64,000 bases of DNA from Eledone cirrhosa (Eukaryota). Below are positions 6,914-59,627 of the stretch, piece by piece. The stretch covers positions 70,742,001 to 70,806,000 of the forward strand of contig OZ024744.1 in assembly GCA_964016885.1 (NCBI GenBank), in the 5' to 3' direction. A program made the position numbers and the translations under genes. Every line of letters begins with the position of its first letter. Positions within the stretch are counted from its first letter, which is position 1. The notes beneath the pieces were generated by a model. The model worked only from the letters and a program-made list of their open reading frames with translations. It had not been told where the DNA came from and searched no databases.

Positions 6914-7040
6914 TGTAGGAGGTGAGTTTTATTGTAGTACAATAAAGCAATGCAGATATCGGATAAGAAGCACTCTACAGTTTGTAGGACTGGAGTATAC
7001 ATAATATAAGATCAAAAGATGGTTAAAGGAGTTCCATGTA

Positions 7041-7107
7041 TTTTATTATGCGCATTTCAAAAACAAACATCATCATGCAATAATATTTGTGTTTTCATCA
7101 GATAAAA
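7041..7107 (-). ncRNA. Minimal type I hammerhead ribozyme (left PLE arm)
   Basis: Reverse complement of 10241-10307. Confidence 0.85.
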
Positions 7108-8142
7108 CAGGAGAACATGATATGAAGGCTAAAAAACACTTGTGGATAGTGCAGTTTTAAATCAACATATGAAAAGTGGTTTTAGATTGATGTGTGATAT
7201 TGGGAAAAATATTTTATTTAGAGAGGGGGGTGGTGGAAAGGATGAAAAAGGGGAGGAGATGAGAGGGAGAGATGGGTGATAGAGAGAAAGAGATAGTTTT
7301 TATAACTGAGAGGAGATATATTGTTTTACATAGAGAGGTTGAAAACCGTTGGAAGATAATGTATAAATTAAAAAAATTTGAAAATTAACGAAGGGAGGAT
7401 ATGTGCGAGGAAAAAATATTTTATTTAGGGAGGGGGGGGGGGGGAAAGGATGAAAAAAGGGGGAGGAGATGAGAGTGAAGGTGGAGAGGGAGAGATGGGT
7501 GATAGAGAGAAAGAGATAGTTTTTATAACTGAGAAAAAGATATATTGTTTTACATAGAGAGGTTGAGAACCGTTGGAAGATAATGTATAAATTAAAGGAA
7601 TTTGAAAATTAACGAAGGGAATTTATGTATGAAGATAGAGAGAAAAAATAATAATTGTGGATGAATATTCTAACGTCAAAAAAAGTGTATGTTGATAAGT
7701 ATTGTGGCAATTTCAAAATTAACGAAGAGAAAAATTATTAAGGTTTGTGTGTAGAAGGATTTGAGAAAAATAATGTGAAGTTAAAGTTTGTATATTGAAG
7801 GAATTGATAATATATGCGAATAAAGAGTTAATATGTATTAAGAATGAGTTCGTTGATGGGGAGAAAAAAAATAATAAATTAAGGATGAAATTGAGATTAA
7901 AAAGATTTATGATAGAGAGAAAAAATAATAATGATTGCGGATGAATATTCTAACGTCAAAAAAACAAATGTATATGTTATGAAGGATTTTACAAGGTGAA
8001 GATAGAATGAGGGTAATGAGTAAACAAGTATTATATAGTGTATAATGCCCTTTAAAGTAAGGTAGGAAGATGGGTATATTTTAAAGAGGTGTATGTATAT
8101 GTGCCTTTGAGAAAAGATTCTAAATTGATAAAGAATTGAATA

Positions 8143-9324
8143 TTAACTGTATACTTTGTGAAAAGTCCTATGGAATTTATGCAGGCAGATAGAAAACAAA
8201 TCTGTACGTCTATTTATTATAGAATCTAGGTTAGAGATAATGGTAAATTTTTCATTTAGGCAGAGATTACAGATTTTAGATAGAGAGCTGTTCAAGTATG
8301 AGGATGCAGAAGAAACCTTCTTCCAAAAGATGGTATATTTAATGTTTTTGTCTTTTAAGGACCATATGAGTTCTGAGAGAGCAGTGTTGGTTCTTTTAAG
8401 TTTGTATTTGAAAGATGAATGATGATTATAGAGACGATCTTTAAAAGAGGTGGAAGTGGAGCCAAAATAGGTGAAGGAATTGGTGCTAGTTATAATTTTA
8501 CATTCATAAATTAAGTTTTTATCGAGACAATGGTTGTTGAGAGGACATTTATTTTTAATGCGGCAGTTGCAATTAGAGAGATTATTAATGAGTGACCTAG
8601 TGTTATCTATAGAAGGAATTGGATTGGAGAAGTTGTTTGCGATAGGAATAATAGGAATAATAGTTTCTTGATTTAGAGTTGGATTATGAACATTTAGCGA
8701 AGTTGTGTTTGACGTTGTATTTGGGTTTACAGAAGTTAGCCTAGGGTTTACAATGACGTCGGGAGTACTATTACTGTTATTATGAAATTCAATGTTGGAA
8801 GGAAGAGATTTAGTATTTAGTATTTTATTGTTGTGTTTAGAGATGATGTTGGAAATATTGGAGGATGTAGAATAAGAAAATTTGATGGTGTGTTTGTTAA
8901 ATATTTTACTATAGATATGTGAGGGAGGGAAGCATTTATTTAAGGCACTAAAAAATAATTTAGGAATATTGTTATTAATAGAGATGGAGAAAGGAGCATT
9001 ATACCAGATTATGTTTTTGTATCTAGGTCTTTTATTAAAATTATTGGAATGATCATGATTAATTATTCTACTGTAAGTTTTTCTAGAATTTGTTTCTTTA
9101 CTATATTTGATTTTATCTGGATAGCCGGCTTTAGAAAGTGCGTTATTATAGTAATTGGCGTTAGCATCAAAGATGTTTTTATTAGAGGATATGTTAGATA
9201 TTCTTTTTCCAATATTACTAACTATAGCATTCTTGATATTGGTAGGATGGTTAGATTTAAAGTTAACATAATTTAGGTTCTCATTGTTTTTATGGTAAGG
9301 GTAATATAGGCCAGTGTCAAAATT
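8143..9324 (-). CDS. PLE polyprotein C-terminal part: RT thumb, Cys-rich linker, GIY-YIG endonuclease (5'-truncated, no start codon)
   Basis: Manual translation is stop-free for ~394 codons: YPYHK..YVNFKSNHP..RISNISS..IIWYNAPFS..CNCRIKNKCPLNNHCL..LIYEC..YFGST..FKDRLYNH..CNLCLNEK..NRRTDLFSICLH, stop at 8143-8145. Confidence 0.9.
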   Translation of the reverse strand, partial: NFDTGLYYPYHKNNENLNYVNFKSNHPTNIKNAIVSNIGKRISNISSNKNIFDANANYYNNALSKAGYPDKIKYSKETNSRKTYSRIINHDHSNNFNKRPRYKNIIWYNAPFSISINNNIPKLFFSALNKCFPPSHIYSKIFNKHTIKFSYSTSSNISNIISKHNNKILNTKSLPSNIEFHNNSNSTPDVIVNPRLTSVNPNTTSNTTSLNVHNPTLNQETIIPIIPIANNFSNPIPSIDNTRSLINNLSNCNCRIKNKCPLNNHCLDKNLIYECKIITSTNSFTYFGSTSTSFKDRLYNHHSSFKYKLKRTNTALSELIWSLKDKNIKYTIFWKKVSSASSYLNSSLSKICNLCLNEKFTIISNLDSIINRRTDLFSICLHKFHRTFHKVYS

Positions 9325-9398
9325 TATTCAATTTGATATTGCCAGCTACTATTCCTCCATTTCGCCTTCACTTCTCAATAATGCTCTATCTTTCGCAC
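9320..9398 (+). pseudogene. Inverted PLE RT fragment (KFIQFDIASYYSSISPSLLNNALSFA)
   Basis: RT motif FDIxxxYxSI, in opposite orientation to the adjacent GIY-YIG frame. Confidence 0.8.
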
Positions 9399-10546: not shown

Positions 10547-11860
10547 CTAACAGCGCTGCGATCGAATGTGGCTTTTTAGCCCAGCCAATGATCTAAAATG
10601 TCTTGCACAGAGTCGGCAACCAAAACATTCACTGGGAATAGTCGGCTGTGGTTAGAGTTCGTGTACCTTTGCATGTCACTTGAGCCCTCCTGCTGATTTA
10701 CATTCTCTACCACATGTTTGGCAAGCATGATGAGTAGCATCTCCAACAGCAACCTGGTAGTCAACCACTGGTCTTACTTTATGACTGTGAAGATGACTTT
10801 CGAGTCCAGCTTTGCTTAGGCAGAGTCTCGCACATACGCTGCATGTCAGCACCATAGGAGGACCCTCGCCGTCTGGAAGTGCAACAGCAATGCCCTTCCT
10901 CACATCCCGCTTTACTTTCTCGTATGCGATTCGAGATGCCTCAAAGGCAACTTTTCCCTCATATACAGTCTTTCTCCATTTATTACGATCAGCAGCAATA
11001 TTTTCCCATGTATCAGCAGAGATGTTAGCATCTTTCAGAGAGGCTTTCAAGGAATCCTTATACCTCTTTTTTGGTTTATGTGGCGGTTGTTTTCCTTTAA
11101 CCAACTCTCCATAAAAGAGTTGTTTTGGTATTCTAGAATCCTTCATCCTGGCAAGGTGACCACTCCAACGGAGTCGTTGCTTAAGCACAAGAGCTTCTAT
11201 ACTGTCACACATAGAGCTTTCCAAAATCTCGACATCACTGATGTGATCCCTCCAGTGAACGCCATGGATCCGTCTGAGACACATCTGATGGAAACGCTCC
11301 AATTGCTTAAGGTGGTGTCGATATGTGACCCAAGTCTCGCAGGCATAAAAAAGACAAGAGAGCACACATGCCCTGTACACCTTTACCTTTGTCCTCCTGC
11401 ATATGTCTCGCCGACCACAGAGTCGCCTTTCTAGCTTTCCGAAATGATCACTTGCTTTCCTAATCCTAAGTGAGATTTCACTGTCAAGGTTGCTGTCTCG
11501 ATTGACAGTGCTTCTCAGGTAGACAAACTGATCAACCACTCCAAGTCGTTTACCATACACATAGATATTTGGTTCAGTGTACTGCTTACCAGGGACAGGT
11601 TGGTACATGACGACGGTTTTCTTGAGACTGACAGTCAATCCCAGGGCAGTGCAAGCGTCAGAAAATGCATTCAAAATGTGCTGCATATCACTCTCTGTGT
11701 ACGCTACAAGATCGCAATCATCTGCATACAAGAAGTCTCTTATGATTGATGTAAATACTTTTGTCTTTGCAGCAAAGCGCCTGATGTTAAATATGCTGCC
11801 TGAGGTTCGATATCGGATGTAAACACCATGCTCGCAATTCCTGAATGCAATACAGAAAAT
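10547..11860 (-). mobile_element. RTE (BovB-like) LINE, 5'-truncated; RT C-half and C2H2-like fingers
   Basis: ORF 10676-12055 contains DFLYADDCDLVA, GLTVSLKKT, QRLRWSGHLARM, CSVCARLC and CQTCGREC. Its N-terminus is microsatellite read-through. Confidence 0.92.
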
Positions 11861-11930
11861 ACATACATACATACATACATACATACATACATACATACAT
11901 ACATACATACATACATACATACATACATAC

Positions 11931-12483
11931 ATGGTGGCTGCCAACTCGTTTTCGAGTACGGCCACTACTTTATATCCATGTAGGAGAACCCCTACCGATG
12001 CGCTGAACGAGTGTGACTTTTTAGTCCAGCCAGCGACTTGAAAACTCTGGTACAAACACTACACTTGTGACAATTATTGACACATAGTGCTGGGCCCATG
12101 GTACCATGTAACGACAAGTGCAGAGAGATCTCCAGACATAAAGCAATGCCTGCGCCGTGAAGCTTTTATAGTGAGCAAAGGCACTGCACAAAGCCAGTCC
12201 CACTCTCTTAACCAAGATGATATTTACCAAAAAGAAGAACAAGTCAACATCATTGGATACCATCAGGGTTGCAGGTGTTATATCAGAGTTTTCCTTCTCC
12301 TAGAATTCTGCCTTGACAAAGGTTAAGGGGTCATCTCTCCCGGTGATTTTGGATGGCCATTGACTCTTAAGAGCTCCTTTGCCCTTTGACAGGTTTTGTT
12401 TTTATTCCTGCAGGATGTCCAAAGTCACCCTCCTCACCAAGAAACCTTGGTGGGGTTGCCAGTTTAGTCACCAACGACCCGAC
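11931..12483 (-). mobile_element. Non-autonomous RTE-related ~550-bp element, copy 1
   Basis: Near-identical to 28336-28909. Its 5' part resembles the leader of the RTE at 17271-17490; it ends in a CTCGAAAACGAG hairpin followed by (GTAT)n. Confidence 0.7.
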
Positions 12484-12844: not shown

Positions 12845-13508
12845 AGTCGCATTGTTGCCAGCTGCGAAAAAATGTCATCTCGCTACTACCTCCCCGTGAG
12901 ACACGATGGGATAGCTAGAACCATCTGGAGCGCACTTAGGAAAACGAAATTAAAAACAAATGAGGAGGAATATGTTGAGATAGATGGCACTAAAATTAAA
13001 AACAAACAGGGAAGAATATATTGAGACAGATGGCACTAAGGAATACTGGTGGAACCTGAAAATAAAAACTGCCACCAAATTAAAGCACAACCGGCCTGAT
13101 ATTGTTGTTTGGGACCACACATTGAAAACGTGTTCTGTTGTGGAGATCAGCTGCCCACTTGTTGTAAACGTTGTCAGAAAAATACAGGAGAAGGAGGACA
13201 TCTACGGACCATTGATGAGGAGTTTACAAATCCAGTATCCAAGATACACCTTCAGCTTCATAGCCATCATTATTGGAGCTACGGGTTATATACCAACCCG
13301 CTTGGACCAAAGTATAACTGAACTTGGATTTGTGGACAAAGAGCGCAGCTCCCTAATTCATAGACTACAAATGGCTGTGATATCTGGCACCTTTAAAATT
13401 TATAAAAAGATCTTCCGATTCAAGGGATGACAATTTCTTTTCTTTTACAACCTTGCCTCCAGGAAGGTGGCCGGTCAAAATGTACTCGAAACTCAGAGAA
13501 AGAGAAAC
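12845..13508 (+). mobile_element. R4/Dong-clade LINE 3' fragment (RLE)
   Basis: RHDGIAR...KHNRPDIVVWD...VVEISCP; near-identical to 29690-30310. Confidence 0.85.
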
Positions 13509-14339: not shown

Positions 14340-14975
14340 CCCCAGTAGACAACTGATGAGGAATCGCCCCCCCCCCACCGTTCTTGCTTTCTTCCCACTG
14401 CATTTTAAGCTACCTTAAATAGCAACTACACAGCCATTTCTATACTCCATATATTTCATCATGTTTTCGCTGTGGCCATTCTCTTCTCCTACCTAACTAT
14501 TTCGTTACTATCTACTCTTACCCCACTTTCTTCCTCTCCCTTTCTCCCTCTCACTTTCACCCCCCTCGTCTGACCCTCTAGTAGTTCTTTTTTCACTTAC
14601 AACTGCGGGGATCAGACGTGTCTTTTTTTCTCTCGACTACTCAGTCTTGAACTTAAGTTCTCTTATCGTGTGGTCTTGGATTTTCTTACCTTAAGTTGCT
14701 CGCACATTGCTCGGTTTGTGGGTTTTTTCGCTGTTTTTCACTGTTTTCTTTTTCTTCCATTTTGTTTTCCTTCCCTCCCTCCTACGTTTTCCCAATAACT
14801 TATCCAGTTATTGACGCCCTGGGGATAGATATCTTGTCTTTAAAGCGTAGAAATATCCGAGACCCCCAGTAGACAACTGATGAGGACCCCTCCCCCCGGC
14901 CTTGCTTTCTTCTTATTCCCACTCCATTTTAAGACACCTTAAATAGCAACTACACAGCCATTTCTATTCTCCATA
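14340..14975 (+). mobile_element. pLTR-like partial-tandem element (110-bp direct repeats 14341-14452 / 14865-14975) carrying the rearranged hammerhead
   Basis: Direct repeat with ~524-bp period, ending in (TA)n; related motif at 17161 and 59521. Confidence 0.65.
14793..14908 (+). ncRNA. Rearranged (non-circularly permuted) hammerhead-like RNA, copy A
   Basis: GATA-TC-TTGTCT..AAAGCG..GAAA-TATC..AGACAA-CTGATGA-hairpin-TGCTTT; pairings covary with copies B and C. Confidence 0.7.
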
Positions 14976-14991
14976 TATATATATATAGTAA

Positions 14992-16425: not shown

Positions 16426-16628
16426 ATAGGAAAAAGTCAGGACTCCGACAGCTGAGCTCCGGCCGTTTCGACAGCTAGATCCAGTTTGGATCTAGCTGTC
16501 GAAACGGCCGGAGCTCAGCCGTCGGGGTCCTGACTATTTTCCTATTACCCACTCTACTACCCAAAGTACCGAGTATTCTGGTGCGTTATGGTCCACCTGA
16601 TTTCTTACCACACCTTCTTTGTTTTACA
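16426..16628. mobile_element. Fold-back mini-element family F, copy 2 (palindrome 16426-16545, tail on right)
   Basis: Arms around loop GTT; GAAA-CGGC-cggagctca-GCCG-TC-GGGGTC. Confidence 0.85.
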
Positions 16629-16741: not shown

Positions 16742-17160
16742 TAGTCAGTTCTTAGATATGTTAGCTCTGTGTTTATAGTGTTGATGGTATCAGAACCTTG
16801 GGACATATGAGTTTGTTAGGAATAAATTAATGTTGTCAGCAGGAATAGTCTTGATTCTCATTGGTCAGTTTGTAGATGGTAGTAGGGTTGGTATTTGACC
16901 TCAAACAGGCAGGTGGTTTTATATATATATATATCACTCTCTGCTTCTCCCCCTCTCACTTCCTCCCGTTTGGCCTGTGTGGGGTCCTTTCTCACTCACA
17001 CCCCACCCATGTCGGATGGTCTGTATATCTCTGTCGCCCATGAAATTCACCCAGCTTAAGCTGAATAGATATCATGTGCTTGTTTCTTCCTATCTTTCCG
17101 TTGCAATACCATGTTTGTGTGTTTACTTGTCTCGCTCGCTTTACGCTATATTACTTGTCC

Positions 17161-17268
17161 CAATAACTTTATTTAGCTATTGCTCGCACCAACTAGAGGT
17201 ATATGATTTTTAAAGCGATGAAATACCAATGAAAGTTGGAAAATCACTGATGAAGGACTAATTTTATT
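17161..17268 (+). ncRNA. Rearranged hammerhead-like RNA, copy B (in element 16935-17270, 3'-truncated)
   Basis: CCAACT-AGA-GGTA-TA-TGATTTT-TAAAGCGAT-GAAA-TACC-AATGAA-AGTTGG-AAAATCA-CTGATGA. Confidence 0.7.
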
Positions 17269-29025: not shown

Positions 29026-29330
29026 TTTTTAAAGTGAGGGAAGACTGGACACTGAGCCAATCCCACTCTCTGAGCGTTAGTAGATGTAACCCGAAAAGAA
29101 AAAAAGATCAACATCATCGGTAACTACTGAGCCGCAGGTTTTATATCGTACATACATACACGTATATACATACATATACACATACATACATACACATATA
29201 TATATATATACACATACATACATGCATGCATATATACATACATACATATATACATACATATATAATGCATACATACATACATACATACATACATACATAC
29301 ATACATACATACATACATACATACATACAT

Positions 29331-30310
29331 AAAAAATATCATTAGAATAGCGACTGATCTGGAGGAGAGATATGGAATAAAGCCTGATATAAATCTCTCA
29401 CCCAGAAAAATCGGAAGATCCTATTCAATGTTCAAACACGATGAAAAGATTGACCAATTTACAGAAAAAGTGGTGCATGGATACTTGAGACGTAAAACAC
29501 AGACCATAGAGGGGATAAACCACTCAAAAAGCCTGGCATGGAGTTTCGACAAGTTTATGACATTACACCTTGAGGGATATCTCTATGCAATACAAGAACA
29601 AGAACACCCTACCAAATATCTGCTGCACAAAAGAGGAGGGCCATCAGCTGACAATAAATGTAGGCTATGTAACACAAAGATCGAAGATGTAAGCCTTATT
29701 GTTGCCAGCTGCGAAAGAATGTCATCTCGCTACTACCTCCCCATGAGACACGATGGGATAGCTAGAACCATCTGGAACGCACTTCGGAAAACAAAATTAA
29801 CAACAAACGAGGAAGAATATATTGAGACAGATGGCACTAAGGAATACTGGTGGAACCTGAAAATAAAAACTGCCACCAAATTAAAGCACAACCGGCCTGA
29901 TATTGTTGTTTGGGACCACACATTGAAAACGTGTTCTGTTGTGGAGATCAGCTGCCCACTTGATGTAAACATTCTCAGAAAAATACAGGAGAAGGAGGAC
30001 ATCTACGGACCATTGATGAGGAGTTTGCAAATCCAGTATCCAAGATGCACCTTTAGCTTCATACCCATCATTATTGGAGCTACGGGTTATATACCAACCC
30101 GTTTGGACCAATGTATAACTGAACTTGGATTTGTGGACAAAGAGCGCAGCTCCCTAATTCATAGTCTACAAATGGCTGCGATAGCTGGCACCTTTAAAAT
30201 TTGCAAAACATTCTTGCGATTCAAGGGATGACAATTTCTTTTCTTTTACAACCTTGCCACCAGGAAGGTGACAGGTCAAAAATATACTCGAAATTAAGAG
30301 AAAGAGATAA
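29331..30310 (+). mobile_element. R4/Dong-clade LINE 3' fragment; ORF 29428-30231 with Cys-knuckle and RLE
   Basis: EGYLYAIQEQ, CRLC..E....IVASC, RHDGIA, NRPDIVVWD, VEISCPLD; flanked by (ATAC)n on both sides. Confidence 0.9.
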
Positions 30311-33459: not shown

Positions 33460-34560
33460 AAACAACACTCATCCACTACAAACACGACACTAATATACAA
33501 ACATTCGCCAACACCCATGAATAACAGCTTTCTAAATTAACTCTAGGACATTGCAGGTCTTCCTTCAAACGGATCGAGTCTGGCTTGGACCAACACCACC
33601 TCACTTGCCTCCGATCCACTTCGCAGTCAAACAGTGGTGCGTTGCTCAATTTGTTGCCCTCCTCATCAACCAGTACCAGGGCCTCCAAGAGAAATTTTGC
33701 AAGGTGATACAAGACCCCTTTGGGGCCTGAAGATTTTTTCAAAATGGATGTTGCGTGGTTGCTGTGGGGCCTTCTTAGATCTTGGGCTCCGAAACAAAGT
33801 ACCGGCTGGACCCCCCCCCCCTCTCATAGACCCTGACACTCACAGAGGAGTGGCCCAACGCATCGGCCACCGCGCGTGTGAACCACACAAATACTGTTTT
33901 AGGACTGTCGTTGAAAAGTTTACCTGCACCCACTGCCATGCCCCAGAGCGCAGGCCGGTTATGCAGACATGCTGCTCTCAACGACATATTGAGAAGGAGC
34001 TTTGATAAAACAGGTTTCCCATCACAACTGGAGCCGACAGGCCTCTACCGCAGAGACGACAAACACCCCGACCGAATTACCCTCTTCCCATATGAAGGAG
34101 GTAGATCCCTTATCTGGGAGGTCACATGTTGTGACATGTTCTCCGCATCCAAATTAGTCGCTGCGGCCACATACCCCGGTACTGCTGCTCGCTATGCAGA
34201 GGGAAGGAAAACAAACAAATACCGGAGATTGCTCGGCTGCTTCCAATTCGCGCCGGTCACCGTCGAGACCTCAGGTATTCTAGGAACCCCGTACTGTCGA
34301 GCTCCTCCGCAAGAACAGACCGTCAGCAGCTCGTCTAAGGAAGGACCGCCGCAAGGTGAGTTACCTGTTGCCGCGGGAGTCGCTGGCCATTGTCTTCGGA
34401 AATGCCTTTGCAGTTTTGTCCGCAAGGCGCAGCCCAAACACCACCGCGTCCTAGGTCAAGAGCCCATCACCCTCTCCCCTTACCTCTCTTTTTTTCTGTG
34501 GCCCAGGAGTCCTTGCCTTTTCCCTCACTTTACTCTCATGTATAGCATTTATAGTCCTTT
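33460..34560 (+). mobile_element. CRE-clade LINE 3' fragment
   Basis: RHAALNDILRR..EPTGLYRRDDKHPDRITLFPYEGGRSLIWEVTCCD..FAPVTVETSG. Confidence 0.85.
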
Positions 34561-34784
34561 CCTCTACTTTCCCGTACAGCCAGATCTGTCATTCTTTACC
34601 CATTCTTCCTTTATCTCAATACTTAATTTGCTTTATGTCATTGAATTTAGGATTAAAAGAAGTCCTTCCTTATAACCCTTTAAAATTTTGAAACCTACAT
34701 AGTTATATTACGACAAACACGCATACACACACACATACACCCCCCCACCCCCACACACACACACATACACATATATATGTATAT

Positions 34785-36874: not shown

Positions 36875-39800
36875 GCTTTCTTTATTAACCACAAGGGTTT
36901 ACACAAAGTAAGACATTAAGGACAAGACAGGACAGTATAGGACGGTATAATGGGCATTTCTGCGTGTAAAAAAAAACAAAAACAGAGGATGTAACAAAAA
37001 AAAGGAACAATCAAAAATTCCCCAATAAGGGGGAGACTTCCGAGGGACATTCGTGGAAAAAGCCCATTAAAAAAGCCTCGGTGACCCTAACCACCAGGGC
37101 AAGTGCCCTCTCCTAGTTTTCCACCTTCAGTTTACAGACTCAGAGTAGGTCCATTTACTCGGGCCATTCTTGCCTCTCTCACCCATCTTTCAACAAAATG
37201 CTGGGAAGAGAGCACTTCCCTCTCTACTCTGATTTTCCTATTCAAATGAAATTTGAAAAAAGTTAATCAGAGCATCACCGAAGAGGTAAGTGGTCGTCTT
37301 CAACCCTTTCAAACGTGTCCACCATACTATCTCTTTCGCCATGGCCACCAGACAGATAAAAACTTCCTGCGCTTCCCGGCTAAAGGAAGAGGGCGGAGCA
37401 ATCCTCACGATGGACTCAGCTGATAGCCGGATCCGTCCTACATGCGACAGCAGGTGTTCGACATAAACCCACAAGTCAGAATGCTCAGACACTGGACGAG
37501 TGCGTGCAGGACGGTTTCGTCGCCCTGCGCGCATTTCGGACATGCCTGTAAAGTTTATCCCGAACTGGCAAAGCTCCTCGGTAGCACTGCCAGACCAGGT
37601 ATTTCTGGAAGTTGTCCATAGGCCCCGGCCCGAAAGTTCTCCCGAAGAGATTGGCTAGTTGATTTTCGTCGACGCCTAGAGTTTCCCCAAGTACGTCGTC
37701 GCTCTTTCCCTCCACTAATCCTGTATAGAACGCCAAGGTGGAGTTTCCACCGATCGCATTGCCCGACTGGTCGAGGGCTGTGAGCGCCTGAAGACATTCC
37801 AGTCTCCAAGCGCTCCCACTCGGTCTTCGCTTGACCCAGGACTGCAGCTCCGTCAAGGAGACGAGCTGGAGAAACACGCGTCTAGCAAAAGGAGACCACA
37901 CCTGATCACCGTCGCGGAAGAGGTGGAGATGTCGTAGCCTGAGCGCGTGTCTTCGCATCATTAGCCACGGCATGCCCAGCCCTCCACGTAGCAGGTGCTG
38001 ACAGCAGATGGACCGCCTGACCATCGGAGCGCGTCCCTTCCACAAAAAGCGAAAGAGCAAACGCTCTAGCGCAGGCAGGCGAGGCTTAGGACAAGGCACG
38101 ACGGTCAGGCGATAGTAGATGACGGACGCGATGTACGCATTCGCCACCTCGGCTCGACCTTTCAGGGATAGCTTGCTCTCTGTCCATTTCTGGGTGACAG
38201 AAGCCACTCTGCTCGTCACCTCGTCCGAGTTTTTGTCCGCCTGGAGGTCTGGACCGAACCAGACCCCTAGCAATTTAACCGGTCCGTCCCTCCAGCGTCC
38301 GACGATGCTGTTGGATGGCATGGACCTGTTTCTCCAGGTGCCGAACTGCAGGCCCACCGACTTTTCCTGGTTGATCATTGCTCCTGTCACCGCCTCGTAT
38401 TCTCTTAGTGTAGTGCCGATCACATCCCGCGACCAGGCCCGCCGCTGCCCCCGAACAGCTGAGCGAAGTATTGCTGAAAAGCTTCATACATTTGCCCGAG
38501 ATCGAGTAGCATGCGCCCGTCGTGGTCTACCAAAGACCGGATCGTGGCTTTGTTGCCACGACGCATCTCCGCCACTCGGGCCCATTTAACGGCTTTCGTC
38601 CCCTCGTGTCTGAGAGCACGCACCCTAGCTCTGACAACGCAGCCTTCGTGCTTTGCATTGAAGAATTGGTCAAGGGCCAATTTCGCCGCAAGTACGTCGG
38701 TCGCGATGCCTTTACTAAGCGCCTCGTCTAATTGTCTAACTTGTTCTCCCTCTGCTCTATTTTTCTCTATTGCTAACGCCTTACTAAATCTAATGGACTC
38801 TATTCTAATCGCTCTTTTCAGAGCAAACCACCATTTGTTGTTGACGATGACCCCCCGTCAACGCCCGCTTAACTGGTTCGCTAATCCGGTCTCTGTAGGC
38901 CTTGCGCGCTGTTAACGACGCGTTTAGCTTCCAGTAGCTGGGTCCCTGTTTATGAAGCCTATCTAAGTCAACCACACAGATCACGAATTTGTGGTCCGTG
39001 TAGTCGACTATCTTGTTTTGTGGACAACCTATGCTAGACCTATCTATTTCCCTACAAAATAGCCTATTTAGATATGATCTGGATGACCCGATGCGGTTTG
39101 TCCATGTGCACATTCGCACATATGGGAAATCCAGATGGTACCTGTCAGACAGTTGAAAACGTCTGAGTAGGTTTGCGAGGCTTTTACACCCTCCTCCCCT
39201 ATCCGTATTCCCACACAGTCCCAGCGTGCATCTAAGATCCCGTTCCAGTCGTCCACTAACACTAAAGAGCGGGACGTTCCAAGAAAGGTCTCAGAGGCCG
39301 GAAGAAATCAGGCTGCCCTGCTTCTGTCGGGGCATAGACGGCTACTAGCCTGAAAGCTTTCCTGTCTCCACTGGTCACGTCCAGTTTCACCAACTTACCT
39401 TCTAGGTTCAGGAAGATGGCCCGTATGGCGAGATACAAGCCTCTCCGAAAAAGCACCCCCCCTCCCCTCGCCGATCCTGGACGGCTGGGAGATGCGTATA
39501 CATCGTAGCCGCCGAAGATCGGTGCGAAGGCTCGTGCTTCGGAGATTCTGGTCTCGCTAATGGCCACCACATCTATGTTTAGTGACCTGAGGTCGTTGAG
39601 CAGGTGACCCCGCTTCCATGACGGCCCCAGGCCACGCGCATTTATACTGCTATTTGAGTAAGGTCGTGTTGAAAAGGAGTGGAAAAAGATGGGAAAGACC
39701 ACTTACCTCACTTCTTGTGGAGGAAGGATGGTTTTTCCGTGCTTCTCACTGTTTGTGGCCCCTTCCGGAAAGATGTGTTTATAAATCTTCCTGGAAAGTG

Positions 39801-41952
39801 TTTATCGGAAGTCTCCGATGTCATTGGGGGAATTTTAATTTTAATGTCGTGTGTTTTCTGTGTGATGCGAGTGATTTGTATGTGCGGAGGTGGTGTGCAG
39901 TTTTGGGGTGTTGTATAGTCTTTTTCTGTGATGCTGGTGTTGTGTTGGATGTTGTGTAATAATTGGTTGTTCAAATTTAATGCTGTGTAGTGTGTATCGT
40001 TTTGGTTGCTTTGTTTTGGGTTTGTTTCTGTTTCGCTTGTTGGTGATTTTTGTGGTGTTGGTGATGGTGGTGTTGGGGTTAATGATGGTAATGGTGTTTG
40101 TGTTTGTGGTGATGGTGCTGGTGATGCTGGTGTGGGTGGTGACATAGCTGTCTTAACTTTTTTGTTAGTTTGTTTGTTTGTTTCGCCCTGCATTTTGTTT
40201 TTGGAGGGCGAAGGAAGAGGATTTTTTCATTTTTTTTTTCTTTTTTCCAGATACAGTTTCCCACTTCTCCTCGTCGTTACAATCTGTCTCCAGTTGCGAG
40301 AGGTCGGGGAGTGGAAAATCCTCCACAGGCGTTGGTTTTGGATGCGGCCAGGTGGATGGTAGAGGCGCTGGTGCTAATTCTGGCGCAGTTGGTGGTGGTG
40401 GTGTTGGTTTTGCTACTGTTGCTGCTACTGTTGCTGTTATTGTTGCTGCTACAGTTACTTCTGTTGTTGCTGCTACAGTTGTTGCTGCCATTTCTGCTGC
40501 TGGTTTTCATGGTTGAGTCACTGGGGTGGACAGGAGAGGTGGTCACAACTTTTTAGCATGAGGGCTGAAAGCCATTAGGTGGGTTCCTTCGCCACAAACG
40601 ACACACCTAGGCCTTCTACCCTCAACGATTACGGTGAGGTGGCTGCAGTCATTGAGGTCTATCACCTCTGGAATTTCCTGTATGTTTTTTTGGTCCGCTT
40701 GGATCAGGAGCTCCATCCCATATCCGGCTCAGTTCTCCTGCTTTATTTTTATCACCTCAATTACTTTTATGTCGGCCTCGATGTCGGCGAGGACGGCAGC
40801 CATTAGCCAGGGAATTTCAATGACCGGCGGAACCTGGGTCACCCTGATCCTTACCAGCCTCTGACCACAATAGCTTGGGAGGAGTGTGAACTCGTCACTT
40901 TTTAATGGGGCCATGTAGTGCTCTCTAGCTTCCTGTGGGGTTCTAAAGAACACGTCTACGGTTCCATATTTTTGCCCACGTCTGATGCGGGTTTTTTGAG
41001 CCCACACATGTCCCAAAGCTTTTTGTATCTGGGACTCGGATGCCCGTTCCACTCGGCGTGTTTTAATATTTATTGTGCGATATGACACGGTGCATAGGTG
41101 CCGATGCTCCATGGTATTAGATGGGAGGCGGGGGGCGGGGTCTGACCGTGTAACCATATTTTTTTACCATTCGCTTGGCTTCATTCAATTCTTCCCGGCT
41201 TACCTCAACCGTTTCGATTTTGTTTGCCGCTTTAGCAAACGCCATATTTGGTTTTGCGCTGGTGTTGATGTTGTTGTTGTTATTCTTATTGTTGCTGTTG
41301 TTGCTGTTGTTGTTATTGTTATTTTTGTTATTATTATTTTTAGTTTCAGTTGTGGTGATGGTGGTGGTAGTATCAGTGGCGTTCGGCGTGGAAGGGTCGA
41401 ATTTGGGAGAATCCATTTCAATATCACGAGATAATAATTTATTTTTTGTTTCAGTTGTTGCTGTGGTGGTGGTATCAGTGGTGTTGGTTGTTTTTTTTTG
41501 GGGGGGGGGGGGCATTGTCGTGGTGGGGATGGCGGCTTTAACACCTGTAGACATTGGTAATGGTAATGGTGGGAAATCCATGTCTGCATGTGAAAAATCT
41601 AAATAATTGCCACTGCTATTACTTATATTTTCAGTGTTGGCAACCGTAGCAAGGTTTACAATGGTGGTGGTGGTGGTGAGAGATGTTAGTCTGTTGGAAA
41701 CGTTGTCAGCAGATTTGGGTAGCTGAATGACGTCCATGTTTTTTTTTTTTCAAAGATATTTTTGTTTGATAAAATAAAGTTTAAATTTTGGGCTCAAGGC
41801 CCCAATATTACCGAGTGTCCTTTTCAGAAGCAATATATGTGAACTTATAAACACTTAACCACAACATTTTTCCATAACTGACAATTTGAAACAACTGAAA
41901 ACAACAAACCTTTGTGGAGCTCACGATAATACGATTTCCTACGTAGGTCGCC
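36875..41952 (-). mobile_element. Tx1/L1-clade LINE with intact ends, frameshifted, RT core deleted near 38425-38460
   Basis: ORF1 pieces 41737-39708; APE (INARGL, SETR, AVYAPT, DDWN, TDHK, YWKLN); post-RT region (INQEKS, LLGVWFG, GGLGMP); (TAA)n flanks. Confidence 0.92.
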
Positions 41953-45944: not shown

Positions 45945-48900
45945 CTTACTTTATTTGCCACAGGGGCGTACAGAAATGGGATATTACAAGACGTGACGGC
46001 GGGGGTTTTACATAAAAATAACTTTAACATTAATAAATAACAATAATAACAATAAACTATAATAATAACAATAATAACTATAAAATAACAATTAAAATCC
46101 CCAATAGGGGGGAACGTTACTGCAAGGTTTTTACACCCCGTGGATAGAACAACTCTCAACACCAGGAACACGTTTTGTAGGTGTTCCTGTCTTCCCTCTG
46201 TTTATCTTCCTCAACCTACAGGTTTATATACAGAGAAGGCCCATTCACTGGGGCCATTTTCGCCACATTCACCTATCTTTCAGCGAATTTACTGGGGTGT
46301 AGCACCTCTCTCACCACTCTCACCTTCCTTCTGAAGTGATATTTAAAGAAGGGGATAAGTTGTTGTCCGGAGAGAAAGGTGTTTGCCCTCAGTCCTTTTA
46401 ACCTCGTTCACCATATTACCTCTTTCGCCATAACCACCAGACAGAGGAAAACCGCCTCTCCTTCGTTCTTAATTGAAGGCGACGGGGTGATCCTCACGAT
46501 GGACTCGGCTGACAACTGGATGCGTCCCATACGTGACAGTAGCTGTTCGACATAATTCCACAGGTCGGTCACCCCTGGGCACTGAACAATTGCGTGCAGA
46601 ACGGTTTCGATGTCCTGCTCACATCTTGGACAGGTCCTTTTGGCAGGATCTCTGCCAGGACGTTCGTGCCTGTAGATTTTGTCTCGAACTGGTAGAGCTC
46701 CTCAGTAACACTGCCAGGCCAGAGGCCTCTGGAAGTTATCCATAAGCCCTGGACAGAAAGTCCTCCCGAACAGACTGGTCAGTTCGTCCTCCTCGATGCC
46801 TAGAGTTTCCCCGAGAACACCGTCGCACTTATCCTCCACTAATCCCCTATAGAATGTCGAAGTGGAGTCTCCGCTGATCGCCGTTTCTGCTTGGTAGAGG
46901 GCTGTGAACGCCTGTAGGCACTCGAGGTGCCAGGCACCCATTTTCGGTCTTCGCTTGACCCAGGACTGCAGCTCCGTTAGTGAGACGAGTTGTGGAAGAG
47001 CTTGTCTCACAAACAACAGCCACACCGGTTCACCGGTAAGGAATACCTGGAGATGGCGTAGCCTCAGCGCGTGTTTGCGCATCATCAGCCACGGCATGCC
47101 CATCCCTCCGTTAGAAGGATGTTGACAGTAGATGGATCTCCTCACCAATGGAGCCTGTTTCTTCCAGAGGAACTTGAAGAGTAGGCGTTCCATTTTGGTA
47201 AGGTATTCGCGGGGGCAAAGCACGACTGTCAAATGGTAGTAGATGACGGACGCTATGTAAGTGTTCGCCACCCCCGCTCGACCTTTCATGGAGAGTTTGC
47301 ACTCAACCCACTTCTGGGTGAGTGCAAACACCTTCGCCGTGACCTCGTTCCAGTTCTTGTTCACCTGGAGGTCTGGACCAAACCAGATCCCGAGCAATTT
47401 CACCAGTCCTTCCATCCAGTGTCCAACGATTGTCGGAAGGCATGGGTTTGCCTCTCCATGTGCCGAGTTGCAAACTGACAGACTTGTTTGGGTTTAGTCT
47501 TGCTCCTGTCAACGTTTCGTATTCCTGTAATAGGTTGCCGATTACCCCGATTTCTGAGGTTTTCGACACCATTACAGTTATGACGTCGGCATAGGTCGAC
47601 GCTGCTTTCCGCAGTCCTGGTTCGATCGGGATGCCCTGCAACAGCTCCAACTTCCGCAGTAACAGCTCGAGAGTCAGTACATACAGAATGGAGGAGAGAG
47701 GGCATCCCTGACGGATGGAACGCATGATTTGGAATGGCTCTGATAGCTAGCCATTCACCTTGACTGCTGAGCAGATGCTGGTGTGCATGGCAGCGATCCA
47801 GCCTCTGAAGACGGGACCGAAGCCGGCCGCCTTGAGAACTGCTTCCAAGTATTGATGGTCGATCTTATCAAATGCCTTAGACTGATCTAAATTGATCAGA
47901 ACCCCACCCTACCCTCTCTATGATGTATCGCATGAGGTGGAGGTTGTTGTGTACGGACCTGGTCGGGATTGCACACGTTTGAGCTTCTCCTACCAGGTTC
48001 TCGACGACAAGACCCAGCCTCGTTGCTAACTCCTTGGCCAAAATCTTTAAATCTGTGTTGAGCAGAATTATGGGCCTGAAGTTGCTTATCTCATCCACTT
48101 TGTTCTCATCTTTCCTGATCAGCGTTATTACGCCTCTGCCTACAGAACTGGGAATCCTCCCGTTCTGCTGCCAGTTGCTGTAGACCGCTTCGAGGATGCC
48201 AGAGAACAAGTCTGGCATGCCTATGTAAAACTCATAGAGTAGACCATCTAAAGCAGGTGATTTGCGTTTCCCGCAGCGGCCTAGGGCATCTTCTATTTCG
48301 CCCGCTGTGATCGGCCTTTCGCAGCTCTCTGCATCCGTGCTCGAGAGTCGTGGTACGCTGTCGAGGTAGGAGCTGAAGTCCATCACCTCGCTCGATGTAC
48401 CGCTTTGCCCGAACGGTTGTGCAAAATGCTGCTGGAAGGCCGTGCACATCTGCTTGGATTCAAGTATAATGCGTCCATCTTTGTCTTGCAAAGACCGAAT
48501 TGTGGATTTGTTGCCACTTTTCTCCTCTGCCACTCGGGCCCAGCTAACAGCGTTGGCTCCCTAGTTTTTTAGAGCACGTGTTCTACTTCTGACAATACAA
48601 CCTTCGTGTTTCACGTTGAAAAACTGGTCTAGTGCCGTTCTCGCCGCTAGCACGTCAGCTGTACTGCCATTCCTAAGTTCCTCTTCTATTTTAGCTACCA
48701 GTTCCTTTTCATTTTTTTTCTTTCTAAAGCTACTTCCTTGCTAAATGCTATCGATTCTATTCTAATTGCTCTCTTGAGAGAGTTCCAGCACCTGTTGTTG
48801 ACGATCGCCCCCGTCAACTGGCTCTTAACTAAGGTGCTACTCCGTTTACTGTAGGCCTTACGAGCCGGGAGCGACATGTTTAGCTTCCAGTATCCGGGTC

Positions 48901-50230
48901 CCTGTCTATGTATTCTATCAAGGTTGACTACGCAGGTGACTAATTTGTGGTCTGAATAGGCAACCATGTGCATTTGTGGACAGCTTAATGTTTCCTTATT
49001 CTGTCTAATTAAAAATCTATCTAAATACGATCTAGAAGACCCAGTACGGTTGCTCCACGTCCACAGTGGTGCACTTAGGAAGTCTAGTCGATATTTATCA
49101 GCCAGTTGGAATTGGCTGATGAGATTTTTGAGGCTATTATACCCCCCCTCTATTAATACAAACTCCTACATAATCCCAAAGTGCGTCTAAGATTCCATTC
49201 CAGTCCCCCGCTAACACTAAGGAGCGAGACGTTCCCAGGAATGGCTTCAGACGCTTGAAGAACTCTGGTCGCGATGTCCCTGTTGGGGCATATACGGCCA
49301 CCAGTCTGAAAGCTCCACCTTGACTACCATTCACGTCCAGGACCACCAGACTGCCCTCCGGGTCCAAGTGAATCGTCTGTATTTTGAGATCCAAGATTTT
49401 TCGAAACAGAACAGCAACTCCTCCTCCGCCTCCTGGATTCGGTGATGGCTATCACATCTATACAGTGTGACCTGAGATCATTTAAAAGCTAGCCCTGTTT
49501 CCAGGACATGCCCAGGCCACGTACATTCAAACATCCAGCTTGTATAGTCGCCATGTTGATGAAGAAGAGTTAAGGAGAGAAAAGGCAGGAACACTTACCT
49601 TTTCGTTTCCTGGAGGTCGGGTTGTTCGATCTCCATGTCCAGATTGGTGGTGTTTGGGGATGGAGGGAATCCTTTTAGCAGGACACGGTTAAGGGGCTTT
49701 TGGCAAGGGGGGCCCACATCATGAAGGAAGTTCTCTTTTAAAGTTTCATACTGTAGGGTTGTTACCCTGATAAGTTTGAGGTTTGGGGTGGGTCGTTGGT
49801 GGGGAGGGTTTTCCCTTCCGTTTGCATTGTGGGGTCTTTTCGGACAGTTTCCACCAGTTCTTTGTTTCTTGTTTTTATGTATGTGTCATGTGTTTTGTTT
49901 TTTATGTGTACTGCTTCTGTTTTTAGTTTTCTTTTTGTGGTTGGGGTTTGTGATTGTGGTGGTGTGGGTGTTTGTTTTGTTGGTGAAGTGTCTGGTTGTG
50001 TTGGTGGTGATTGTGTTGTTGGTGTGTTTGTCGTTTGTGGCGGTGTGTTTATGGTGGGGTTGGGTGTGTGCGTGTTTTCTGTAGATGATTTTGTGTCTAT
50101 TTTGTCTCTTTTTTGTTTTTTTGGAATTTTTGGGTTCCTCTTCATTCTCACTTGGAGATGTAGAGGTTCCCGTGTCTGAGACTTCTGAATCAGGAGTAGA
50201 TGGGAGAGGTATGTTGTGTGGGGGAGTGTT
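45945..50230 (-). mobile_element. Tx1/L1-clade LINE, 5'-truncated in ORF1, decayed ORF2 (ATG at 49554)
   Basis: MATIQAGCLNVRGL, AVYAPT, GDWN, SDHK, GYWKLN, KSPALDGL, NFRPIILLNTDLKIL, RQGCPLS, YADV. Confidence 0.92.
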
Positions 50231-58916: not shown

Positions 58917-59520
58917 GTCAGGGAAGACAACTATTCTTGAGTCATTGTTCATCTTAAAAATGATTGATTTCTTTCAAGAGTTATGAAGCATCTTTGGTTT
59001 CCAACAGAAGTTATCAGGTCGATCAGGAAGAGTTAAAGTTTCATATATAGCACTCAGGAAGCTCAGTGGATAAAGTAAAGCAAAATTAGCACACACACAC
59101 CCACACACATGTCTATATATATATATGTGTGTGTGTATGTATATATATATATATATATATAGATCTTTATGGGAAACTGAGTTTCAGAAGATCCCTTAAA
59201 AAGGTAAAAGCAGGGATTCTTTACTTAAACTTTAATCTGTACTTATAATATATATATATATATAATATAATATAAGATATATATATATATATATATATAT
59301 ATCCGAATTCGCAGACCAGACCGCTTCTTCCTCCCGTTAGACCTGTGCGAAATTCCTTCCTTGCTCACATTTCAACCAGGTTTGATGGTCTTTATTCTCT
59401 CGTTCGCGATTTCACCGAATTTAAATTCATAGAAATCTGGGACTTGTCTCCTTCTTCTTCACTTTCTGTTGCTTCACCATTTTGTTTGTTTACACCTGCG
59501 TCCCCTTTATTTACGTGTCC

Positions 59521-59627
59521 CAACGACTTTTTTTGGCCGTTGCTCGCACCAACCGGAGGTATATGGTCTTTAAAGCGATGAAATGCCTATGATGGTTGGA
59601 AGATCACTGATGAAGGACAAACTTTTG

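Follow-up and report, generated by a model that had tools for sequence, protein, structure and literature searches.

This locus raises the question of whether the conserved blocks of a hammerhead ribozyme still make a hammerhead when their order is not a circular permutation of the usual one, and what kind of element carries them. The sequence analysed is a 64,000-nt stretch of the Eledone cirrhosa genome (assembly GCA_964016885.1, contig OZ024744.1, positions 70,742,001 to 70,806,000), referred to below as the window. It is eukaryotic in character, with many microsatellites and retrotransposon fragments, and the assembly size is 3.0 Gb. A preliminary description had reported three copies of the motif and had taken the strand order to be new. 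The novelty of the order does not stand, as it is that of the natural type-SGC hammerhead of Eckert et al. 2023, who split the hammerhead into blocks S, G and C and validated the type in vitro (PMC10085705). That study collected 583 type-SGC sequences, all from metatranscriptomes, obtained none from a known organism in a RefSeq search, and recorded cleavage by five ribozymes at 0.007-0.19 per minute. Its authors take it that the stem II strand belonging to CUGAnGA comes immediately after it. Their descriptor, as given in the accessible part of the paper, requires a stem II in which block G pairs straight with block C, through a C-G pair and 2 bp or more besides. The accessible text of a 2026 paper citing that work (PMC13725137) holds no SGC data, and a literature search with subscription papers largely outside its reach yielded no later genomic example of the type.

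Sequence inspection placed all three copies (A, B and C) on the + strand at the positions claimed. The pattern AAAGCNNNGAAAN{10,35}CTGATGA had three exact matches in the window and none in 100 shuffles. A generic S-G-C descriptor (stem I of 5 bp, stem III of 4 bp, UH, GAAA and CUGAnGA) recovered just the three copies, with H17 at 14833, 17203 and 59563, and gave 0 hits on the minus strand, 1 in the reversed window and 0 in the complemented window. Pattern and pairing descriptor both give S, G, C as the block order, which bears out the proposal of a pseudoknotted, non-circularly permuted hammerhead.

The expectation that standard descriptors would miss the motif was also correct, as no hammerhead was found among the best 150 of 247 Rfam matches in the window. 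The other matches among these 150 were microsatellites hitting miRNA models and a sub-threshold snR66 at 17203-17247; a box C/D snoRNA reading of the latter was dropped, since the motifs concerned are part of the hammerhead stems. The published SGC descriptor would likewise miss the copies because it demands a direct stem II, which is absent here. A script search with strict stems detected no canonical type I hammerhead motifs in the window. By eye, a minimal type I hammerhead-like motif (CTGATGA...GAAA) that this script missed is visible near position 7100, in a Neptune-like Penelope fragment (7020-9327, minus strand, with a GIY-YIG ORF at 8143-9327).

In the structure that we propose, the chain would run from segment a through hairpin H to segments b and c, the 5' strand of stem III, UH with the cleavage site, and stem I. 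A linker of 3-4 nt would then lead to b', GAAA, the 3' strand of stem III, a kink and c', followed by stem I', CUGAnGA, optional extra nucleotides and a'. Helix IIb joins the strand before GAAA to segment b, just 3' of H (UCGC/GCGA in clade M, ACGC/GCGU in clade A), and helix IIa joins the strand after CUGAnGA to segment a, just 5' of H. The outer helix is c/c'. The features in the window are as follows.

14340..14978, + strand: 5'-truncated clade A element, 1.2 copies of a 524-bp tandem unit, (TA)n end
14786..14890, + strand: ribozyme copy A, whole
14790-92 (TCC) / 14884-86 (GGA), + strand: copy A helix IIa, 3 bp only
14793-14813, + strand: copy A hairpin H
14814-17 (ACGC) / 14845-48 (GCGT), + strand: copy A helix IIb
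14819-24 (CTGGGG) / 14864-69 (CCCCAG), + strand: copy A outer helix
14828-32 (GATAT) / 14853-57 (ATATC), + strand: copy A stem III
14834-39 (TTGTCT) / 14871-76 (AGACAA), + strand: copy A stem I
14850-53 (GAAA) and 14877-83 (CTGATGA), + strand: copy A core, predicted cut 3' of C14833
16959..17325, + strand: clade M element, 367-bp 5'-truncated copy, (TA)n end
17157..17258, + strand: ribozyme copy B, whole
17157-60 (GTCC) / 17255-58 (GGAC), + strand: copy B helix IIa
17161-82, + strand: copy B hairpin H
17184-87 (TCGC) / 17215-18 (GCGA), + strand: copy B helix IIb
17189-94 (CCAACT) / 17234-39 (AGTTGG), + strand: copy B outer helix
17195-97 (AGA) / 17228-33 (AAT-GA-A), + strand: copy B k-turn-like loop
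17198-17202 / 17223-27, + strand: copy B stem III
17204-10 / 17240-46, + strand: copy B stem I
17247-53 (CTGATGA), + strand: copy B core, predicted cut 3' of A17203
59303..59636, + strand: clade M element, 5'-truncated copy of 334 bp flanked on either side by (TA)n
59516..59619, + strand: ribozyme copy C, whole
59516-20 (TGTCC) / 59615-19 (GGACA), + strand: copy C helix IIa
59521-42, + strand: copy C hairpin H
59544-47 (TCGC) / 59575-78 (GCGA), + strand: copy C helix IIb
59549-54 / 59594-99, + strand: copy C outer helix
59555-57 (GGA) / 59588-93 (TAT-GA-T), + strand: copy C k-turn-like loop
59558-62 / 59583-87, + strand: copy C stem III
59564-70 / 59600-06, + strand: copy C stem I
59607-13 (CTGATGA), + strand: copy C core, predicted cut 3' of A59563

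The preliminary description overlooked that the motif belongs to a high-copy element, probably a retrozyme. The partial repeat it had noted at 14341-14390 is real (14340-14390, + strand) and is the start of the 524-bp tandem unit. Three genome-wide patterns gave 7,259, 7,447 and 911 matches, compared with 0, 2 and 0 for the reversed-pattern controls. The first and second patterns are mutually exclusive, as are the second and third, and the overlap of the first and third is small because a related pattern matches only 49 times in all; the total is about 15,600 exact-pattern matches in the 3.0-Gb genome. Motifs on the same strand are mostly spaced 494-804 bp apart, and the longest array has 3.3 units (L041). 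Copies have variable start points, often with an inverted piece, and (TA)n ends. Of 280 copies, 188 have a (TA)5 run that begins at most 150 nt after CUGAnGA; the distances peak at 10-19 nt, where 38 copies fall, and at 50-69 nt, where 71 do. Three monomers have a GC content of 43-46%, 67-70% pyrimidines and a longest ORF of 32-65 aa; between the monomers of clades M, A and F there were only 26-nt BLAST matches. Two sequencing runs of unrecorded kind, available as contigs, cover the unit and may come from the source sample. The motif sits in a 0.5-0.8 kb non-coding tandem unit with Penelope-type insertion marks in (TA)n, a probable retrozyme.

Almost nothing outside the ribozyme is common to clades M, A and F, and the same fold is kept in all of them. 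Cross-clade counts were made with anchor-based scripts because MAFFT misaligns clades M and A; the anchor alignment holds 66 copies hand-picked for an intact 5' part (36 of clade M and 30 of clade A). Changes on both sides were counted for five pairs of stem I, two of stem III, four of the outer helix (between clades) and two of H. An unbiased scan of all column pairs, for helices of at least 4 bp paired in at least 80% of both clades, returned six helices. H, IIb, the outer helix, stem III and stem I showed compensatory changes and one helix did not covary, giving five covarying helices compared with a mean of 1.0 and a maximum of 4 in column shuffles. Within clade M, 25 representatives (one per cluster, from 89 copies of standard spacing) had 94% of cells paired in a six-helix pseudoknotted structure, with 12 compensatory pairs. 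None of 500 shuffles reached these values and slid controls were 23-48% paired; among these representatives IIb had no both-side changes and IIa had one. The first description of stems I and III, of the outer helix and of the 5' hairpin holds, and their covariation was confirmed in larger copy sets. Covariation is shown for stems I and III, c/c', H, IIb (b/b') and IIa (a/a'), with b' partly fixed by the search patterns and with a count that rests on few family-founding events. Nested minimum free energy folding did not recover the structure (z +0.3 to -1.6).

The CUGAnGA and GAAA core is present in all copies by construction of the patterns. Two positions that were in none of the patterns are informative: U16.1 is U in 65 of 66 copies, and H17 is A or C in 66 of 66. 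N7 varies between T, C and A where the pattern left it free. Conservation of U16.1 and H17 (never G) while N7 varies matches what would be expected of a catalytic constraint.

Stem II is where the copies depart from the published type. The IIb pair beside CGC is U-A in 35 of 36 clade M copies, A-U in 30/30 of clade A and G-C in 23 of 24 of clade F. The pair next to G12 is G-C in all 24 clade F copies (G10.1-C11.1), A-U in five clade A copies and U-A in both copies at locus L342. In clade M, the largest clade and the bulk of the family, 10.1-11.1 is a mismatch in 36/36 (C.U, C.C, C.A or U.U/U.C), and N11.1 has no partner in 22 of the 30 clade A copies. Helix IIa is GUCC/GGAC in clade M and ranges in clade A up to GUUUUCC/GGAAAAC; it is just UCC/GGA in some clade A copies. 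Window copy A is one of these 3-bp cases and may be a weaker ribozyme than copies B and C; IIa as a whole missed the 4-bp scan list. The first IIa pair in clade F is U-A or A-U in 24/24 copies (11 and 13), and another IIa position is G-C in clade M, U-A in clade A and A-U at L342. A direct A10-U11.1 pair was considered and dropped, as 11.1 may be U, C, A or G.

Clade F provided a prediction written before its copies were fetched. Spotted by GCGCC before GAAA, they were expected to carry GCGC as segment b and a segment a complementary to the strand after the core. The fetched copies had GGCGC, and CCCT with AGGG, confirming the predicted splint; the k-turn part of the same prediction failed. 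Clade F counts refer to 24 of 41 copies, the other 17 being left out with an unparsed 5' hairpin. In the further set that includes L342, 18 of 30 copies were parsed (12 left out for the same reason), and four parsed copies were in the wrong register (three lacking a base after H, one truncated). Sporadic GCGC mutants on clade M and A backgrounds had no compensating change by eye (30 loci), as expected if they reflect decay after insertion. Clade F and some clade A copies leave no unpaired linker where the core, IIa, H and IIb meet.

From these pairings, IIb would sit on the core where stem II normally does, the 5' splint would provide nucleotide 10.1, and IIa and H would complete a four-way junction. 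We infer by analogy that IIb stacks on the core, IIa stacking being the alternative, because stem I, the 3-4 nt linker and the 5-nt strand before GAAA mirror the geometry of HRIMA-1. No natural hammerhead with an extra stem or a four-way junction like this one was evident in the accessible literature, and the wiring does not appear in the accessible parts of Perreault 2011 (PMC3088659) or Forgia 2023 (PMC10162972).

A k-turn consists by consensus of a 3-nt bulge followed by tandem G.A/A.G pairs; k-turns adopt a kinked fold and bind L7Ae/15.5K. In clade M, stem III is separated from the outer helix by a 3-nt bulge of variable sequence, after which GA stands in 36/36 copies, with GA on the opposite strand in 34 of 36, which matches this consensus. 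In clade A without subfamily A3, position 1n is A in 18/18 copies and 2n is U in 14 of 18, with GA in four of 18; the U at 2n in most clade A copies presumably resembles Kt-23. The consensus is absent from A3 (12 copies), which has a larger loop, and from clade F, which has Watson-Crick pairs plus bulges or plain loops. The feature common to all clades appears to be a flexible break after stem III. Beyond it, the stem III extension meets stem I across a gap that is 0-1 nt long in most subfamilies; in one clade F subfamily the gap is about 5 nt. The 3-nt bulge or k-turn would fold this extension back on the stem I end, and the I-to-IIb linker would stand in for the loop-loop contact. In the accessible literature, the search for natural hammerheads with a k-turn returned only a paper on synthetic switches.

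The motif shares with type SGC (HRIMA-1 and SGC variant) the S-G-C order and the pseudoknotted core, the few linker nucleotides that lead out of stem I into the strand before GAAA, and an optional extra nucleotide after CUGAnGA. The differences lie in the helices. In type SGC, stem II is formed by block G with block C directly, whereas here it is split into IIa and IIb by the 5' splint; three direct pairs were found in only two of the 217 copies that have the S block (62 further pattern matches lack it). The published helix joins stems I and II, whereas here stem III continues through the kink into a helix joining stem I. Specifically, the unbiased scan of 66 copies detected no helix linking the outer sides of stems I and II, and the segment 5' of stem I' pairs instead with the 5' strand c (four compensatory pairs). 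A GGUUGG/CUAACU helix akin to the I-II helix of Eckert et al. was dropped, being impossible in clade A. The sources differ as well: type SGC was known from metatranscriptomes only, while the copies here are genomic, with ~15,600 matches. By its sequence, the motif appears to work like a type-SGC hammerhead, yet it fails that type's definition of stem II. What is new beyond Eckert et al. is the animal retrotransposon context and the rebuilt core helix, not found in the literature searched.

Two known groups of elements resemble the unit, as far as the accessible parts of the respective papers describe them. Non-LTR animal retrozymes, which were located with type I descriptors, have hammerheads of type I (PMC7229834; 10.64898/2026.07.22.740005), and their monomer RNAs occur in linear and circular form. 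Like the unit here, they are non-coding tandem units with one hammerhead each and low GC (43-46% here), and occur in thousands of copies alongside Penelope-like elements (PLEs). The unit of 0.5-0.8 kb is longer than the retrozyme circles of 170-400 nt and falls within the 51-972 bp of the preprint, and its S-G-C order differs from the type I hammerhead of those retrozymes. The pseudo-LTRs of PLEs (Poseidon PAc, PMC11167929; Naiad/Neptune, PMC8557442) share several marks with it: 5' truncation, partial tandem copies and inverted 5' copies, insertion into (TA)n or AT-rich DNA, and 3' ends that favour a few sites past the ribozyme on its downstream side. The reverse transcriptase (RT) of Poseidon initiates at two internal sites, and its targets are AT-rich (PMC11167929). 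PLE ribozymes are minimal type I hammerheads, unlike the motif here, and no RT-GIY-YIG ORF was found linked to the unit. An autonomous PLE has an RT plus GIY-YIG ORF between its pseudo-LTRs; a tblastn search with six ORF queries from this genome found no PLE ORF at a fixed distance or orientation to the motif in 207 loci of 3-10 kb (mostly 1.5 kb on each side). Poseidon- and Neptune-type elements are both present in the genome.

The motif probably defines a family of non-autonomous retrozymes whose 0.5-0.8 kb tandem unit carries an S-G-C hammerhead with a split stem II. Multimeric transcripts would self-cleave at H17 into monomers, and the cut ends would stay paired by about 20 bp (stem III, the outer helix, IIa and IIb), so that religation or circularisation should be favoured. 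The RNA would be copied in trans by an RT/GIY-YIG protein of Penelope type (Poseidon or Neptune). Reverse transcription into (TA)n would start within the RNA, at AU-rich sites a short way downstream of the ribozyme, and such copying would yield 5'-truncated, partial-tandem and inverted copies. Counting against this reading are the 10.1-11.1 mismatch of clade M, the short IIa in part of clade A, the few independent events and the weak nested-fold scores. By analogy, so do published element ribozymes that are inactive or protein-assisted: the accessible text of the preprint reports that eight of nine frog retrozyme dimers did not cleave (10.64898/2026.07.22.740005).

Much the same evidence could describe a real fold that is no longer, or never was, efficiently catalytic and serves as a Penelope protein site, an RT-initiation signal or a site of protein-assisted cleavage. 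The clade M mismatch and the clustering of insertion ends just downstream of the motif would suit this account, as would the PAc hammerhead, which is described in the accessible part of its paper as protein-dependent and dispensable for insertion in vitro (PMC11167929). We nevertheless consider it unlikely, given that U16.1 and H17 are kept outside the search patterns while N7 varies and that clade F has the full canonical G-C pair. The preliminary description had in turn proposed an invariant AAAGCG paired with a downstream TGCTTT as stem II. AAAGCG is not invariant (ATGCG in 7,447 matches, TCAGCG or TAAGCG in clade F), and TGCTTT is not conserved, being seen by eye in clade A copies and not in M or F. 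The idea returns as an ordinary type-SGC ribozyme with a weak direct stem II, of one or two pairs or AAAGCG/TGCTTT, in which the pairings on the 5' side have a peripheral or regulatory role. In 174/217 copies one or two direct pairs could form, TTGCTTT is common downstream in clade A, and according to the accessible text (PMC7229834) a U.U mismatch at the foot of stem II does not stop an axolotl hammerhead from cleaving. Against these stand the scarcity of three direct pairs (2/217), direct registers that do not covary, and clade F, where the partner of the canonical C11.1 would be A or U in the strand after CUGAnGA but is G in the splint in 24/24 copies; we regard a weak direct stem II as quite improbable.

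Two further accounts concern the element. The unit could be the pseudo-LTR of an autonomous PLE, its copies being 5'-truncated insertions. Partial tandems, inverted 5' copies and (TA)n microsatellite targets are PLE marks, and a minimal hammerhead of a Poseidon element at locus L033 opens with exactly the CTGATGAAGGACTA of clade M. The lack of a linked ORF in the 207 loci, the arrays of up to 3.3 units without an ORF, and the minimal type I motifs that nearby Poseidon and Neptune elements carry themselves (by eye) make this very unlikely. Cleavage between molecules or units, with blocks of different tandem units building a canonical hammerhead, appears to us scarcely credible. The units are tandem, and minimal PLE and amphibian hammerheads act as dimers in the accessible account (PMC7229834), but a canonical C-G-S order would need three units 0.5-0.8 kb apart, and all partners lie within about 110 nt with linkers of conserved length.

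For the retrozyme with a split stem II, a stronger reading is evenly balanced between true and false on the sequences at hand: that it is an active natural hammerhead of four separable blocks, with the 10.x strand taken from the 5' splint and a k-turn cage around the cut ends, and that it drives ~15,000 circular-RNA retrozymes. If true, its four-block wiring would lie outside the six permutations of Eckert et al., and animal genomes would hold a whole ribozyme layer invisible to current descriptors. The S-G-C order, earlier seen just in environmental RNA with unknown hosts, is here part of a multicellular organism's DNA, where its copy number is very high and diverged family versions are available for comparison. 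With the split stem II proposed here, CUGAnGA need not precede its own stem II strand, which breaks the stated assumption; more wirings are therefore possible and published search patterns too narrow. A construct of ~110 nt is short and testable, with natural variants that have or lack the 10.1-11.1 pair and the k-turn. The result also suggests a new look at PLEs reported without canonical hammerheads, such as Naiads.

Collections other than this genome gave little. A loose pattern had 57 matches in viral contigs, of which two near-identical ones passed stems I and III and were judged chance on their G.U-rich fit; the clade F pattern had two matches there, neither passing. Metagenomes gave 50 matches with a best score of 10 of 12, none complete, and one tight pattern gave 0 matches in prokaryote genomes. 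These collections hold few eukaryotes and therefore say little about other animals.

Several loci showed further features. On the minus strand of L033, a Poseidon-type element has minimal type I hammerheads at two places, 7300-7270 and 4875-4845. One of these starts with CTGATGAAGGACTA and has its stem II closed by GTCC; the GGAC/GTCC helix is that of clade M IIa and is a possible clue to origin. A 5'-truncated copy at L250 (1490-1550), with stem I TTGACC/GGTTGA, may represent a further clade. Head-to-head inverted pairs forming long perfect hairpins occur at L024, L028, L037, L302 and L321, with the inversion point inside or just upstream of the ribozyme. L001 (1750-2030) holds a clade M monomer in which a stretch of ~140 bp is duplicated internally, the two parts being 71% identical. 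L298 (2740-2560, minus strand) has, immediately upstream of its clade F dimer, a long inverted repeat with CTGATCAG and GAAAC motifs, possibly another element's ribozyme.

Within the window, a long near-perfect palindromic element lies at 16432-16535, and similar sequence stands beside several loci, e.g. L028. Other retrotransposon fragments are at 1353-1814, 33830-34675, 12984-13430, 29266-30231, 37238-41163, 46702-49165 and 10676-12058, with what we take to be restriction-like endonuclease, L1/Tx1-like and RTE-like ORFs. A neighbouring SINE presumably resembles one from octopus genomes.
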